From an uncultured Candidatus Saccharibacteria bacterium (GTDB taxonomy: Bacteria; Patescibacteriota; Minisyncoccia; Phycocordibacterales; UBA918): a stretch of 64,000 nt of DNA. Below, piece by piece: positions 52,685 to 58,097 of the stretch. Every line of letters begins with the position of its first letter. Within the stretch, counting starts at the first letter, position 1. Both the position numbers and the translations under genes were made by a program. The notes beneath the pieces were generated by a model, which saw only the letters and a program-made list of their open reading frames with translations, was not told where the DNA came from and searched no databases. The DNA lies in contig CAYNQD010000001.1 of the NCBI GenBank assembly GCA_964399295.1, positions 271,672 to 335,671 on the forward strand. Reading direction: 5' to 3'.

Positions 52685-54070
52685 CTAAATATCATGGTCA
52701 ATCTCCACTTCCTCGTAAGTGTCTACGTTCGGGGTGGATGGTTCTTCAGATTCAACCTCATGACTTTCCTCAACTTCTTCACTTATCATTTCTGTTTCTG
52801 TGTCAATCACCAAAGGAGCTGGGGCTGAATCCGTCGCCGTAAATTGCAAATGCAGACTCTTGGCAACCACATACCCACTCACATCACCAGATGAAGCCAA
52901 ATAACCCTTAAAAATAATATCAACTTCACAACTCTCACCAACATGATTATTTTGATTCATTAAAAAACCAAGGGACCAAGGGTTTGTAAACGAAACTTCA
53001 CTGCCGACTAAGCTAAGGAGGCTTCCGGAAAAAACCAGCGGCCAGCCCGCTTCCACGATCAAATCATCACAGAAAGCGGGCTGGCCGCTGGTTTTTTCTA
53101 CCAACACGTCATAAACCAATTCCTCGACATTGTCCAAATGAGGTGTCAATATCACTTCCAAACCACCTCCTTCCAGCTGTCCGCCAACAAAAACCAAAGA
53201 AGTGTAATTGGGACTAATGGAGAAATCCAAAGTTTGCGCTTTTAAGGAATTATCCACACTAGTCTCAATATCTTTAAGGTAAGAAAATGTTGAGTCGTCA
53301 AACGTACTCTGTCCAGCCAAAATCACCAGAAAAGCTATTGCCGCCGTCGCCATTGTCAAGCGCGGCTTGATATCATGATAAGCTTGAGCTGTATCAGATG
53401 ATAACGAAATCTTTGCTTCCGTTACCACTACTTTTTTTTTCTCAATCGGCTTTATGTCCAGCAAACGAGTTCTTACCACTACCGGCAGCACCTCTTTGGC
53501 CGGTAGTTTATTTGGATCAAAAGGAGCCACCACCAAAGGCATAATCATTTCTTTAGTAAATTTAATTTGTCGTATCCGCCTAACCTCTCGCCAGATTTTG
53601 GCAAGCTCGTCCAGAATTATCAGCAAAGCCGGAATACCCACCAAAAAAGCAAAGCCCATAGGCTGTCTGGCAAAATCCAACACAAAACCAACGTAGGGCA
53701 AGTCAAACACTACCTTGCCAATTACGTTATTTGGCGACACCAAATTTGCGTCGGCTTCTTCATTGGCATCACCCTTGGTAACAAAAAAATCTACTCCGCT
53801 CACATTTTCCATTCCAACAATCCGGTGCGTGGTGGGAATTTTTGAATTTTCCTCCGTAAAGGTTATAACATCGCCAATTCCATAATTAGCAGCCTCTTTA
53901 ATCACCACCACCGCTCCCGTCATGATAGCCGGCTCCATGGAACCTGATTTTACGATTTTTGCATCAAGAAAATCAGCTGCCGGCACGGAAGGCGCGACAA
54001 ACAAAACTCCCAGCCCAACAATAATCAGCCCGCAGATACCATATAGAAGAAAAGAAAATATTTTACTCAT
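52685..54070 (-). CDS. ER/archaeal-type signal peptidase I (SipW-like, S26B) with ~290-aa C-terminal extension
   Basis: N-terminal TM. Catalytic Ser motif KSGSMEP. Conserved His region ITFTEENSKIPTTHRIVG. Box D/E-like GDANEEADANLV. After a second TM, the extension contains AGQSTFDDSTFSYLKDIETSVDNSLKAQTLDFSI, resembling the cognate signal motif of the upstream genes. Acidic C-terminal tail. Confidence 0.8.
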   Translation of the reverse strand: MSKIFSFLLYGICGLIIVGLGVLFVAPSVPAADFLDAKIVKSGSMEPAIMTGAVVVIKEAANYGIGDVITFTEENSKIPTTHRIVGMENVSGVDFFVTKGDANEEADANLVSPNNVIGKVVFDLPYVGFVLDFARQPMGFAFLVGIPALLIILDELAKIWREVRRIRQIKFTKEMIMPLVVAPFDPNKLPAKEVLPVVVRTRLLDIKPIEKKKVVVTEAKISLSSDTAQAYHDIKPRLTMATAAIAFLVILAGQSTFDDSTFSYLKDIETSVDNSLKAQTLDFSISPNYTSLVFVGGQLEGGGLEVILTPHLDNVEELVYDVLVEKTSGQPAFCDDLIVEAGWPLVFSGSLLSLVGSEVSFTNPWSLGFLMNQNNHVGESCEVDIIFKGYLASSGDVSGYVVAKSLHLQFTATDSAPAPLVIDTETEMISEEVEESHEVESEEPSTPNVDTYEEVEIDHDI

Positions 54071-54072
54071 AC

Positions 54073-55263
54073 CTAACGATTGTTACCCCTAACTAAACTG
54101 ATAATAGCTTCTCGCACTCCCTCCAGCCGCGAAGTACTACCGACAATCGACTCAAAGGCTTCACTATTTATCGGAGCGGCTGGCTCTGCAGGAGTAGCAG
54201 GTGAAGCTGGCATAGCGGGACTGGCCGGAGCAACGGGCGTACTAGGCGATGAGGGCATACTGGGCGAAGTTGGTTTTGCAGGCTGAGCTGGACTGACTGG
54301 ATTAGTAGGATTGGCGGGCGAAGCCGGATCAGCTGGTTTTGCAGGTTCTGCCGGTTTGGCTGGCTCTGCCGGAGTAGCTGGCACACTAGGTTTTGGATTA
54401 TTGTTCCAATCATCTTCCCAATCATGATCTGGCTTGCACTTTTTATCTTTTTTATCCTTGCATTCCGGCTTTGGGTTGTCTGGCTTAGGCTCTAAAGCAC
54501 ATTTGAAGCCTTGATTATTTTTGGCCTGTACCGCCCGCAAACTCACGTCCACAGTCATTGAATCAGTCTGAATTATATTGCCCACTTGACTGCCATCACA
54601 ACTGACAGCCGCCGTGGCGAGATTGACATTCAGCCGACCGGCACACCACAGTACCCCCACATTATTTAGTGAATTAGCCGCCCACGACTGGCCGACAGTG
54701 GAATCAGCCAAAGGGTAAGTGATGTCGTCCAGCAAAATATCCGCTGTATTCACCACTCCGTCACCAAAAATCACCCCTTCCCCCACATCAAAAGCACTGT
54801 TTTTATTATCATCCAACCAAGCAAATAATTGCAAATGACTAGACAGTTCCCCACTCTCCGGGGTGAAGTCTACCAGACTTTCCGGCTCATTGATGCCATT
54901 TTCATAGTCCTGCAAATTCTTGAAATCAAGACAAACATAAGCCGGATTCTTTTTCACTTTCAGTCCGATGTTGTTTCGTCCATAATCTCCGGGCTTTACG
55001 TCGTCAAAGTCAAAAAAGTGATCCGCCCCAGGCACCAAATCTTTCAACTCCCAAGTCAAAGGCGACTGCAAAAGGCCGTTGTACCAAGTTTCACTGCTGA
55101 TAGTTAATTCCAATCCGTCCTTTTTATCATTATCCTTACTTTTCTTAGTGGCAAAAGTATAACCGGCTTTTGCGCCGTCAGCCGAAAGCAATACCAACAT
55201 CAACACCAAGCTCCCGCTCAGCATCATTATTTTTGCTCCTCGTTGGTAAAAGATTTTTGGCAT
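54073..55263 (-). CDS. TasA/camelysin-like (SipW-substrate family) secreted protein, divergent third paralog with Pro/Ala-rich C-terminal tail
   Basis: Shares FDFDDVKPGDYG, ESLVDFTPESGEL and QTDSMTVDVSLRAVQAKNNQGFKC blocks with the two upstream paralogs. The N-terminal cognate-signal motif is degenerate (GAKAGYTFATKKSK). C-terminal PAEPAKPAEPAKPADPASPANP... low-complexity tail. 2-bp gap to the peptidase gene. Confidence 0.65.
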   Translation of the reverse strand: MPKIFYQRGAKIMMLSGSLVLMLVLLSADGAKAGYTFATKKSKDNDKKDGLELTISSETWYNGLLQSPLTWELKDLVPGADHFFDFDDVKPGDYGRNNIGLKVKKNPAYVCLDFKNLQDYENGINEPESLVDFTPESGELSSHLQLFAWLDDNKNSAFDVGEGVIFGDGVVNTADILLDDITYPLADSTVGQSWAANSLNNVGVLWCAGRLNVNLATAAVSCDGSQVGNIIQTDSMTVDVSLRAVQAKNNQGFKCALEPKPDNPKPECKDKKDKKCKPDHDWEDDWNNNPKPSVPATPAEPAKPAEPAKPADPASPANPTNPVSPAQPAKPTSPSMPSSPSTPVAPASPAMPASPATPAEPAAPINSEAFESIVGSTSRLEGVREAIISLVRGNNR

Positions 55264-55315: not shown

Positions 55316-56713
55316 TTAATTGATAATTGGCGGTAAAGTGGCGCAATTTAGCGCGCTAAAGGCATCTAGGTCATAACCGTCAGCCAAAGCTTCAAATGGC
55401 GCTCGGGGCGACACGTCTGTCAAACGCACATACTTTGCCCAAGACAATCCAGAACTCGCCAAATCTGCCTCTGCGTCACGGTCAATGCTGGAAGCCACCA
55501 AGTACCAATTTGTACCGTCTTGACTAACCTCAATTTTTACTTTCTCTACCGGATAGCTAGTACCACCTGTCACTTCCCAAGCTCGCAAATCATTGCCCGG
55601 CCCGTCAACAATATAACCATCACCAAATTCAACGATAATCCATCCGCCCTCAACTTCATTTACGTCAGGATTAAAACCAAGACTAAAGAAACTGCTTGAG
55701 ACTACCGGATTGTCAAACGCGGCTCCAGAACTCTGTGGAGCACCTAAAGCAAAGGCTGGGTTTGAGCGGTCAAGATCAATCGTCGTGCCGTTTTTTCGCA
55801 CTCCTTGAGAATAATCCACCACTTTAGTGGCGTAGGTTTGTTCTGGTGTACAGGTCAAATCCACTTTTTGACACATAAAGTTTTCATTGTGTCTGGCTTG
55901 CACGGCGTGAAAAGAAACATCAGCCGTCAAAGAATCAGTCTGGCTTTCATTACCCAGATGCGCTCCCGCACACTGGAAACCACCATCAGCCGGCTCGCCC
56001 GCAATAGTGTTTCCGTTGTTGTCACCAGCTGGATTTATAGCATCTCCAAAACCATCTTGTGGCAATGGCATTGGCGTGATGTCACCAAAGCACCAAGCCT
56101 TACCGATATAATAAGCAGTCGCACCTGTTACCGGCCCGCCCACATTACCTTCGTTCCAGATGTTAGATTGAGAATCAGCTAGCGTGATTGGGTATGGTTC
56201 GTTCAAGGACAAATTTCCGATTGCAGCCGGGCCGGAAATAACCATTTCGTCATCTTCCAGCACATTGTCGCCATCATCAGCCCACCAGATAAAATTGGTC
56301 AACATCGCCAATTCACCCTCGCCCACTCCGGGATTACCACAAGTACCGTCCACCAAAGATTCAGGCTCGGTACAGCCGTTGTCGTTGTTTGAAGTTAGGG
56401 TGATATCAGCGCACATGTAAGCGTCATTGGTGTCAACATGAATTGAAATTGTGTCCTCACCATAATCTCCTGGTTTAACATCATCAAAATTAAAAAACTT
56501 TTCAATGGTCAGATTCCGTTTTGTCCATGAAGTGACTTCACTAAAAACACCATTGTAATAACTTTCATTATCAATCAAAAGGTCAATCGCCCCCGCCGTA
56601 AATACGTTGGCCACCGAAGTCTCAACATCAGAAAAGAAAGCTTTGGTAGCACCAAAAGTCAACGCGCCCCCGACCACTATTATCATCGCCAAACTCAAAA
56701 AAATTCTTTGCAT
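55316..56713 (-). CDS. TasA/camelysin-like secreted protein with SipW-cognate-type signal peptide
   Basis: N-terminus IIVVGGALTFGATKAFFSDVETSVANVFTAGAIDLLI (compare B. subtilis TasA GGGTWAAFND..ATFASGTLDL). FNFDDVKPGDYG (compare TasA NLKPGD). Conserved QTDSLTADVSFHAVQARHNENFMC block. Confidence 0.75.
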   Translation of the reverse strand: MQRIFLSLAMIIVVGGALTFGATKAFFSDVETSVANVFTAGAIDLLIDNESYYNGVFSEVTSWTKRNLTIEKFFNFDDVKPGDYGEDTISIHVDTNDAYMCADITLTSNNDNGCTEPESLVDGTCGNPGVGEGELAMLTNFIWWADDGDNVLEDDEMVISGPAAIGNLSLNEPYPITLADSQSNIWNEGNVGGPVTGATAYYIGKAWCFGDITPMPLPQDGFGDAINPAGDNNGNTIAGEPADGGFQCAGAHLGNESQTDSLTADVSFHAVQARHNENFMCQKVDLTCTPEQTYATKVVDYSQGVRKNGTTIDLDRSNPAFALGAPQSSGAAFDNPVVSSSFFSLGFNPDVNEVEGGWIIVEFGDGYIVDGPGNDLRAWEVTGGTSYPVEKVKIEVSQDGTNWYLVASSIDRDAEADLASSGLSWAKYVRLTDVSPRAPFEALADGYDLDAFSALNCATLPPIIN

Positions 56714-56852: not shown

Positions 56853-58097
56853 TTAGAAAACATCCACCTGGAAATCACTTGAATATCCACTTCCGATTGG
56901 ATGCCATACAGAGTTTAGAGCTGAAACTGGAAGGACTGCGTTTACAACACCATAACCACCGTCAGCAAGCCATAATTGAACAGCGAAAGCGTATGAAGTA
57001 CCAGTGAAGTAACTACTATCAACCGTAATAGTATATTCATCGGCAACTCCAGATGGGGTAGCTGTTATACCTAATGGAAGTGGTACATTAGCACCCCAGT
57101 TATCTCCACCGTTTGAGACATTAAATACACGATAAGTAAATGCTCCATTGTAGAATGAAACCTGAGCATCCTGCACTCCATTGTTTTCGTAATCAAGCAC
57201 AACAGCAAAGAAGTCGTTTGTTTCTGAAAGGTTTTTTGGCGTGTTAACCACAAACTTTACATCTCCACCACCATTCACAGAACGAGTTACTGAAAAATCA
57301 TTCCAGCCAGAGTCAAGAGTAATGAAGTCAACTGGCTGAGCATTTCCAGTACCGTTGTGTCCATTTGCCCATCCCCCATAGGCAGTATCGGTGTTTAGAG
57401 TACCGAAGTTTTGACCAACCTCCTCTTCATCACCATCGTTCAAACTAGAACAATCAAAGTTTGGATTGTGACGAGTCTGCACGGCGTAGAAACTAATATC
57501 AGCTGTCAATGAGTCAGTCTGAGCTAGATTGTAATTTGCCAATGGGTCTAATTCCAAGTTACTGCCATTGAAGACTCCAAAACCGTACTCAATAGTACTG
57601 CTGGTAGTAGCACCGGCAGCTACAACGCCCAGTTTCTGCCATTGACCGCTAATAGCGTCCAAAGTACCGGTAGCCGAACCGAACTTGAAGGACAAGAATT
57701 GTCCCAGTTCACCATCACCACCAGTCTCATCATCAGCAGCCGCTTCCGGGCCATTGATACCATTATCATTATTTTCCTTTTCTTCTACCAACACGCAAAC
57801 ATGGGCTTCGTTGGCACCGTTTTCCAATTCATAAATCACCTTGCCGTGGTCAAGCGGCTTTAGGTCAGCAAAAGCAAATGACAGGTTATTTCCTGTACTA
57901 CTGGCAGTAAACTGCACCTCTTCATCAGTCACGTTGACACCCTCATGGCTGATATTCTTGACCTCCAAGGTCACTGAACCAGCCGTGAAGATGTTGCCGG
58001 TTGAGGTTTCTGTATCGCTAAAGAAAGCACCGGTACCGCCAATCACCAAAGCGCCGGCAAAGACGATGACTCCCAAGCTTTTAATAATTTTATTCAT
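56853..58097 (-). CDS. TasA/camelysin-like secreted protein with SipW-cognate-type signal peptide (first gene of cluster)
   Basis: N-terminus VIVFAGALVIGGTGAFFSDTETSTGNIFTAGSVTLEV. FAFADLKPLDHG. AQTDSLTADISFYAVQTRHNPNFDC. Preceded by a 428-bp leader/promoter region. Confidence 0.75.
   Translation of the reverse strand: MNKIIKSLGVIVFAGALVIGGTGAFFSDTETSTGNIFTAGSVTLEVKNISHEGVNVTDEEVQFTASSTGNNLSFAFADLKPLDHGKVIYELENGANEAHVCVLVEEKENNDNGINGPEAAADDETGGDGELGQFLSFKFGSATGTLDAISGQWQKLGVVAAGATTSSTIEYGFGVFNGSNLELDPLANYNLAQTDSLTADISFYAVQTRHNPNFDCSSLNDGDEEEVGQNFGTLNTDTAYGGWANGHNGTGNAQPVDFITLDSGWNDFSVTRSVNGGGDVKFVVNTPKNLSETNDFFAVVLDYENNGVQDAQVSFYNGAFTYRVFNVSNGGDNWGANVPLPLGITATPSGVADEYTITVDSSYFTGTSYAFAVQLWLADGGYGVVNAVLPVSALNSVWHPIGSGYSSDFQVDVF

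Follow-up and report, generated by a model that had tools for sequence, protein, structure and literature searches.

In Bacillus subtilis, TapA starts TasA filaments by donating an N-terminal strand (PMC10151520). The protein consists of a long signal sequence (aa 1-43), an N-terminal segment (aa 44-57) that is homologous to the TasA N-terminus and is alone enough for biofilm formation, a complete immunoglobulin (Ig) fold (aa 72-189) with a C92-C188 disulfide, and a disordered tail that is dispensable (PMC10151520). A donor-strand mechanism has also been described for archaeal TasA-like pili, and TasA homologues have been noted in Patescibacteria (PMC9245690). Here we analyse a gene in a 64,000-nucleotide stretch of contig CAYNQD010000001.1 from an uncultured Candidatus Saccharibacteria bacterium (this whole stretch is referred to as the window). 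The gene is a single open reading frame (ORF) at 52685-54070 on the minus strand, in which a signal peptidase of the archaeal type is continued by a module that appears to be its own substrate.

The locus resembles tapA-sipW-tasA of B. subtilis in that a dedicated archaeal-type signal peptidase is encoded together with subunits bearing a SipW-cognate N-terminal motif. The module fused to the peptidase resembles TapA in having a SipW-type signal, a short subunit-like strand, a complete Ig-like fold with a pair of cysteines and a disordered tail, a likeness that we take as analogy and not as membership of the TapA family.

Architecture and conservation of the fusion

The fusion ORF encodes 461 aa. 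An earlier note on this DNA, made from the letters alone, had described it as one ORF joining a peptidase and a substrate-like module, and this description proved to be real, the coordinates and both of the peptides that it quoted being exact. All features of the gene and its operon given below lie on the minus strand. The chain begins with a predicted N-in signal anchor of the peptidase, the transmembrane segment TM1 (aa 4-30, 53981-54061), which was located by hydropathy and corresponds to a helix at aa 2-28 in the AlphaFold2 model. It is followed by the extracytoplasmic catalytic domain (aa 31-135, 53666-53980), which is assigned to the archaeal/endoplasmic reticulum (ER) type, or SipW-type, of signal peptidase I by TIGR02228, by SEC11A/C and by its conserved columns. 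A second segment, TM2 (aa 138-158, 53597-53659; hydropathy and AlphaFold2), is the C-terminal transmembrane segment typical of SipW and would bring the chain back to the cytoplasm, where a linker predicted to be disordered from AlphaFold2 and the alignments extends over aa 159-239 (53354-53596). The third segment, TM3 (aa 240-253, MATAAIAFLVILAG, 53312-53353), was recognised by hydropathy, by AlphaFold2 and by comparison with stand-alone forms of the module, and represents the hydrophobic (h-) region of an internal N-in/C-out signal peptide of the SipW type.

The NCBIfam model TIGR02228 (archaeal-type signal peptidase I; MEROPS S26B) matched aa 16-156 with 112.9 bits against a cut-off of 51.85, and a profile search of the PDB with the family profile matched human SEC11A/C at 1e-14 to 3e-12. 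The equivalog model of the Bacillus SipW (NF046067) gave 114.7 bits, below its cut-off of 190, and the fusion peptidase is therefore not an equivalog. Judged from its sequence the peptidase is nevertheless SipW-like, in that two transmembrane segments flank the catalytic domain. The candidate catalytic residues are S44 (53939-53941) in the motif SGSMEP, H82 (53825-53827) in TTHR, and D101 and D107 in GDANExxD, with roles assigned from what is established for S26B enzymes. The alignment of 120 homologues shows no change at H82, D101 or D107 and at least 90% conservation of S44, which in an alignment of 40 sequences is likewise invariant, and the peptidase is thus active-looking.

A strongly basic stretch, KIWREVRRIRQIKFTK, stands directly after TM2, with KPR before TM3 and an acidic stretch after it. 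Since basic charge follows TM2 and precedes TM3 while acidic charge follows TM3, the motif and the active site would share one side of the membrane, and it is predicted that the segment between TM1 and TM2 and all residues past TM3 are outside the cell, with the linker (aa 159-239) in the cytoplasm. The earlier note had put the signal motif after the second transmembrane helix; hydropathy and charge instead put it after the third, beyond an 80-aa basic cytoplasmic linker. This linker contains a motif, LLDIKP (aa 203-208, 53447-53464), which has the form R-x-M-M-D-I-x-x-P ('MMDIxxP') in fused proteins and of which D205 is at least 90% conserved. Its counterpart in stand-alone forms of the module is MDDI/TDDV/FDGI...P, at or near the N-terminus (P0146, P0155, P0163, P0184, P0185, P0140, P0154 and others). 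The motif might serve as a site for targeting or for a chaperone, or might be what remains of an ancestral start.

A fused ORF could in principle be a sequencing or assembly artefact, in which a frameshift or a missed stop falsely joins two genes, and the linker does have a homopolymer, a run of nine A residues (A9) at ~53432-53440, where this might happen. Many relatives also carry two separate, overlapping genes. However, the identical 461-aa ORF is present on four contigs, namely three Logan assemblies of separate sequencing runs, which were the ones read, and a 594-kb NCBI contig. A database search with the fusion protein returned 357 relatives, of which the best 120, at 410-723 aa in length, show 31-55% identity to the query over 79-100% of it and align unbroken through the linker, TM3 and the motif. 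Where named, these 120 belong to Paceibacteria, Nomurabacteria, Kaiserbacteria or Minisyncoccia, and they are annotated only as 'signal peptidase I'. The layout is common to more than 130 full-length homologues in Patescibacteria, which are continuous through the linker with the A-run region included. The independent assemblies and the continuous homologues together effectively rule out a frameshift or assembly artefact, the likelihood of which we regard as negligible. An artificial fusion, which the earlier note had raised against its own reading, is accordingly not borne out, and the same fusion, which it had suggested looking for in related genomes, is found end to end in more than 100 homologues at 30-55% identity.

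The internal signal peptide and its stand-alone counterparts

The SipW-cognate motif, DDSTFS↓YLKDIETSVDNSLKAQTLDFSI (aa 258-285, 53216-53299; the arrow marks the predicted scissile bond), was identified by pattern search, by a profile-profile match and by its conservation. The predicted bond, S263↓Y264, is encoded at 53279-53284. The site obeys the classical signal peptidase rule of small residues at -3 and -1, and its register equals that of the upstream substrates, whose sites read GATKA↓FFSDVETS... and GGTGA↓FFSDTETS.... The part of the motif downstream of the bond is homologous to the donor-strand region of the TasA and TapA N-termini. When the pattern [ST]x[SA][YF]xxDxEx[ST]xxN was searched in the six-frame translation of the 64-kb window it occurred three times, in the two canonical upstream substrates and at the internal site of the fusion, and it occurred in none of 100 shuffles. 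Alignment of the profile of the module family with that of the upstream paralogues (hhalign) gave exactly 32 aligned columns, which are the motif (E 3.5e-7, probability 93%).

The site is strongly conserved among the 120 fused homologues, with T/S at -3 in 120/120, S/A at -1 in 119/120 and Y/F at +1 in 119/120, followed by D at +4 (113), E at +6 (117) and N at +11 (118). The consensus is G-x-(T/S)-(V/I/L)-(S/A)↓(Y/F)-F-x-D-x-E-x-S-x-x-N-x-L-x-A-x-x-L-D-F. The family model TIGR04088 (SipW-dependent-type signal peptide; a hydrophobic region plus the motif A-F-x-D-x-E...N-x-F-x-A-G) was the only or chief family match on the internal segments of seven of the ten homologues tested, at scores of 10.9-23.1 bits, one of them above the cut-off of 19. 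From -5 to +20, residue usage in the fused (n=136) and stand-alone (n=66) forms is indistinguishable, which means that fusion has not loosened the constraint on the cleavage site. The internal copy of a cognate signal motif that had been noticed at the outset is thus genuine, is conserved in orthologues, and is placed on the outer side of the membrane like the active site.

The stand-alone forms came from a search in which a profile of the module, comprising TM3, the motif and the domain (alignment A4), was run against 1.84 billion representative proteins. It matched 2095 of these, 1056 of them at E<=1e-10. The 98 representatives first seen in this search include ~27 fused proteins (~500 aa) and ~60 stand-alone pre-proteins, which are 235-360 aa long, or 490-615 aa with an added lamin-tail domain. 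In these pre-proteins the hydrophobic helix and the motif are found again, 40-60 residues from an N-terminal Met, as an ordinary N-terminal signal peptide. One locus (L006) has three or four TasA-like genes, then a separate sipW of 181 aa and then a stand-alone module gene of 295 aa, the start of which is overlapped, in a different frame, by the last 29 nt of sipW.

We then surveyed the loci of 80 species-representative genomes with close SipW relatives, which had been found using the full-length alignment; the state of each locus was determined by ORF parsing, and the record titles are mostly of the Patescibacteria group, with a few automatically named bins labelled Gammaproteobacteria or Bdellovibrionales. 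The peptidase was fused in ~15 genomes, was split from a cognate-motif gene lying directly downstream in ~39, and stood as peptidase only in ~27. On a rough neighbour-joining tree of the peptidase domains the window falls into one coherent fused clade, and there are at least four further, separate fused lineages. The passengers of the fused proteins vary by lineage, being the Ig module, a lamin-tail domain, or only a low-complexity acidic tail. The lamin-tail passenger (LVINE...EWVELYN) is found behind TM3 and the motif in Chisholmbacteria, Woesebacteria and others, with fusions at L088 2965-4254, L083 2974-3876, L064 2977-4032, L068 2983-4065 and L020 3001-4827; the linker of L083 contains a run of X (masked bases). 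Fusions with the acidic low-complexity tail only are found at L017 3001-4161 and L022 2962-3984.

Since the passengers differ among the fused lineages, the constant part is TM3 and the motif. The stand-alone pre-proteins, the split neighbours of sipW and the several fused lineages together show that this constant part is a bona fide SipW-type signal peptide. From these comparisons we conclude that TM3 and the motif are a genuine signal peptide of this type, that the enzyme is fused to a real substrate, and that fusion or separation of sipW and the substrate gene downstream of it has taken place repeatedly. The earlier note had left it undecided whether the attached domain was a pseudo-substrate or a real one, and the occurrence of the same module as a stand-alone pre-protein, encoded right after a separate sipW, decides for the latter.

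The passenger and the operon

The passenger domain (aa 283-413, 52832-53224) is predicted with confidence to be a small Ig/PapD-like beta-sandwich, which AlphaFold2 with the family alignment modelled with a predicted local distance difference test score (pLDDT) of about 95; the model of the module only had a mean pLDDT of 87.7 and a predicted template modelling score (pTM) of 0.76. The linker, the motif region and the tail were of low confidence, and the motif region was unstructured in the monomer model. Cysteines C334 and C381 of the passenger are invariant. The tail (aa 414-461, 52688-52831) is acidic, of low complexity and predicted to be disordered from hydropathy, charge and AlphaFold2; in homologues it is rich in E, P and T and variable in length. 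Of the ~230 aa of beta-rich sequence and acidic tail that the earlier note had described, the acidic tail stands, at 48 aa, and the folded part is shorter, at ~130 aa.

The best fold matches of the passenger are Ig-like chaperones (FimC/PapD, Caf1M, SafB) and pilins (FimA, AggA, CsuA/B), and neither TasA nor TapA is among the structural matches listed. The passenger or module had no family match in Pfam or NCBIfam and no sequence match in the PDB; PF12389 (TasA/camelysin) did not match the fusion protein, and TapA (YqxM) had no NCBIfam or PDB sequence match to the module or its profile. We considered whether the passenger might be a fourth TasA-like paralogue and rejected this, since hhalign aligns the motif only, the databases give no match and the folds are generically Ig/PapD-like. 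Homology of the C-terminal region to the three upstream TasA-like paralogues had been anticipated, and when the alignment was run the similarity ended after the 32-residue motif.

Four co-directional genes (56853-58097, 55316-56713, 54073-55263 and 52685-54070) make up the operon. The fusion comes last, its ATG lying 2 nt past the stop of the preceding gene, and a convergent gene for an HxlR-type regulator lies beyond it. In a promoter and terminator scan, a strong hairpin resembling a terminator lies at 58510-58487 and closes the gene preceding the four-gene cluster, and within the fusion gene no usable internal signal was found. A short GC-rich palindrome (AGCGGGCTGGCCGCT) with a T-run at 53037-53089, in the region coding for the passenger, is terminator-like on both strands and is probably a chance match. 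The layout of several subunits with cognate signals followed by the fusion is also present in a complete Kaiserbacteria genome. In this genome a sortase and a SpaA-like protein adjoin the fibre operon (L004 42-1953), and type IV pilin-like (N_methyl) genes adjoin the one at L006 (6942-8525), so that several systems for surface filaments are clustered.

The first upstream substrate (56853-58097, 414 aa) has the canonical signal GGTGA↓FFSDTETSTGNIFTAGSVTL and matches TIGR04088 with 28.2 bits against the cut-off of 19. The second (55316-56713, 465 aa) has the canonical signal GATKA↓FFSDVETSVANVFTAGAIDL and scores 17.4 bits, just under the same cut-off. PF12389 matched the upstream proteins over the N-terminal ~35 residues only, at 21.7 bits, just under its cut-off of 22.5, while in homologues at 33-40% identity PF12389 is present and the NCBI name is 'TasA family protein'. 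Profile searches of the PDB with the upstream subunits (alignments A5 and A6) gave no matches, and TasA was not retrieved. Many homologues (400 aa) of the first substrate carry the Joint Genome Institute (JGI) name 'predicted ribosomally synthesized peptide with SipW-like signal peptide', a name that on TasA-like proteins was apparently taken from the N-terminal motif alone. At the C-terminus of the second substrate, aa 352-432, there is a weak F5/8 type C (discoidin-like) match (E 7e-4, below cut-off), which hints at a carbohydrate- or surface-binding tip domain. Its orthologue in Kaiserbacteria CP064968.1 consists of two overlapping ORFs in different frames (L004 5257-6093 and 5856-6671; 278 and 271 aa), which may reflect either a sequencing error or a pseudogene with a frameshift. 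The third paralogue (54073-55263, 396 aa) has TasA-like core motifs and a Pro-rich tail. Its N-terminus (…GAKAGYTFATKKSKDNDKK…) is non-canonical and lacks the F-S-D-x-E motif, and a counterpart of 408 aa occupies the same position before the fusion gene in the Kaiserbacteria genome (L004 6773-7999). This protein could be a cap or terminator of the fibre, or an anchor subunit that spans the wall.

Proposed processing of the fusion and relation to known systems

Having shown the architecture and its conservation, the module's nature as a substrate and the topological logic, we propose that the fusion is a self-processing polyprotein, in which a dedicated SipW-type peptidase is joined by way of a cytoplasmic linker to the entire pre-protein of one of its own substrates and in which the released substrate nucleates the upstream subunits. 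We consider this account as a whole to be fairly probable. After membrane insertion, the catalytic domain and the segment following TM3 would both be on the outer face, where TM3 and the (T/S)-x-(S/A)↓(Y/F)-x-x-D-x-E motif would act as an internal SipW-cognate signal peptide. The peptidase would cut S263↓Y264, in cis or on a neighbouring copy, a step that is probable in our judgement, and would yield a peptidase of ~29 kDa with three transmembrane segments, since it would keep TM3, and a released passenger of ~21 kDa. The new N-terminus of the passenger (YLKDIETSVDNSLKAQTLDF) would be the type of strand with which the mature upstream subunits begin. On the analogy of Bacillus TapA, it would be donated to the first TasA-like subunit and polymerisation would start, although we hold the role of the passenger as a fibre initiator only tentatively. 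The same peptidase would also mature the subunits encoded upstream. The fusion would thereby hold enzyme and initiator at a 1:1 ratio and in low copy, and would free the initiator exactly where the subunits are processed. Among the roles that the earlier note had entertained, namely autoprocessing, a membrane-tethered nucleator or anchor, and a decoy, autoprocessing that releases a TapA-like initiator is the one we favour, the uncleaved anchor is still open, and the decoy found no specific support.

Several points weigh against this proposal. The cleavage, and its mode in cis or in trans, is something that we infer here rather than read from an observed product or a new N-terminus, and the small residues at -3 and -1 could also serve binding without hydrolysis. 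The internal segment of the window itself is one of the more divergent copies (YLKD versus YFND) and had no TIGR04088 match at E<=1. The apparent membership of the upstream subunits in the TasA family derives mainly from their N-terminal region and from the source annotations of their homologues, which means that the donor-strand mechanism of the fibre is itself an analogy carried over from other systems.

The main rival to cleavage is an uncleaved, membrane-tethered fibre base, in which the signal peptide would be inserted and stay uncut, the strand following TM3 would hold the first subunit while tethered, and the base of the fibre would be anchored in the membrane by the enzyme. TM3 and the motif lie near each other, and a strand that stays tethered is able to complement a neighbour, much as the strands of chaperones complement neighbouring subunits in chaperone-usher systems. 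The absence of an obvious wall-anchoring motif from the tail, and the motif region being left unstructured and exposed in the full-length AlphaFold2 model, are also consistent with such a base. However, the rule of small residues at -3 and -1 is kept at 98-100%, the same as in the stand-alone N-terminal signal peptides, and the repeated fusion and fission of sipW and the module would be most easily tolerated if both states gave the same two products, so that we regard an uncut anchor as unlikely. It is also conceivable that the protein is self-processed but the passenger is simply secreted cargo, such as an adhesin or matrix protein, with the fusion being a near-neutral outcome of overlapping genes in streamlined genomes. 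The split genes overlap by 29 nt in another frame, which implies that a 1-nt indel can fuse them, and both the variation of the passengers by lineage and the lack of detectable homology to TapA fit this explanation. Against it, the sole constant across the passengers is the strand-like motif matching the mature N-termini of the subunits, the corresponding short segment of TapA is alone sufficient for function (PMC10151520), and the main fused clade has been kept over deep divergence, to ~30% identity. We therefore find mere cargo quite improbable.

Two products might also arise without any proteolysis if an internal start, either in the linker at M-M-D-I (here TTG-CTG-GAC-ATA) or at Met240, gave a separate pre-protein. 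Several stand-alone pre-proteins begin exactly at MDDI..., matching the conserved linker motif, and there is a weak promoter-like match at 53404-53375. But the window has Leu-Leu and not Met at this position with no clear ribosome-binding site upstream, the promoter-like match is 9/12 in a region rich in such matches (19 found versus 11.5 expected), and close homologues conserve the protein sequence of the linker from TM2 to the motif, all of which makes an internal start very unlikely. A further reading of the fusion, which we regard as speculative and rather unlikely, holds that it is a mechanistic coupling and not a convenience, and that the internal signal peptide occupies the substrate-binding site of its own peptidase, either with self-cleavage as a zymogen-like switch or as an uncut membrane root. 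In the zymogen-like version one self-cleavage would at once activate the enzyme for the subunits and free the initiator, whereas in the uncut version the fibre would be rooted in the membrane through its processing enzyme.

Signal peptidases are usually pictured as meeting their substrates by diffusion in the membrane. Here a signal peptidase carries a substrate in its own chain, an arrangement kept in well over a hundred fused cluster representatives and, on the rough tree, gained or lost several times. If self-cleavage is true, it would be a compact way for minimal genomes to set both the ratio of initiator to enzyme and the place of nucleation. It would also give a function to an unannotated module family (~2000 representative clusters, labelled 'signal peptidase I' or unnamed), and would indicate that TasA/TapA-like fibres are a widespread feature of the cell surface in Patescibacteria, whose cells live attached to those of a host. 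If the signal peptide does occupy the substrate-binding site of its own peptidase, this would be the first signal peptidase with substrate recognition hard-wired in cis, and would offer structural work a natural tethered complex of the two. An active-site mutant of the fusion would be a natural stoichiometric complex of enzyme and signal peptide, which could open signal-peptide recognition of the ER/archaeal type to structural study.

Among known systems, the catalytic domain is similar to eukaryotic SEC11 and archaeal signal peptidase I (S26B; 7P2P, 7P2Q), with which it shares the Ser-His type motifs SGSMEP, TTHR and GDANExxD. Unlike the fusion, SEC11 acts in a multi-subunit complex on unlinked substrates, and we know of no SEC11 with a substrate in the same polypeptide. 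Streptococcus pyogenes SipA/LepA (4N31), a fold match at rank 12, likewise has a signal-peptidase fold, is encoded in a surface-fibre operon and has a role in fibre assembly. SipA is needed for pilus polymerisation and is described as a non-catalytic homologue of signal peptidase acting as a chaperone, whereas the fusion keeps the catalytic residues and carries an attached site that is predicted to be competent for cleavage. The mechanism that we propose, in which an exposed strand would complete the sandwich of a neighbour, resembles donor-strand complementation in chaperone-usher systems, and the passenger has its best fold matches among the chaperones and pilins of these systems. In having enzyme and site in one chain, the fusion is also like self-processing polyproteins of the viral NS2-NS3 type, and cleavage would similarly fix stoichiometry and couple the products spatially, although the protease is of a different class and the site is a membrane-embedded signal peptide that would be cut at the outer face.

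Searches of the full-text literature turned up no account of a fusion between a signal peptidase and its substrate. Compared with Bacillus, no sequence similarity between the passenger and TapA is detectable, the peptidase is under the SipW equivalog cut-off, and the host is an ultra-small bacterium of the Patescibacteria type. Above all, the accessory protein is in one chain with the peptidase, in the order peptidase-accessory and by way of a cytoplasmic linker and a third transmembrane segment. What is novel is thus a system of the tapA-sipW-tasA type in which the enzyme and its accessory substrate are made as a single chain.

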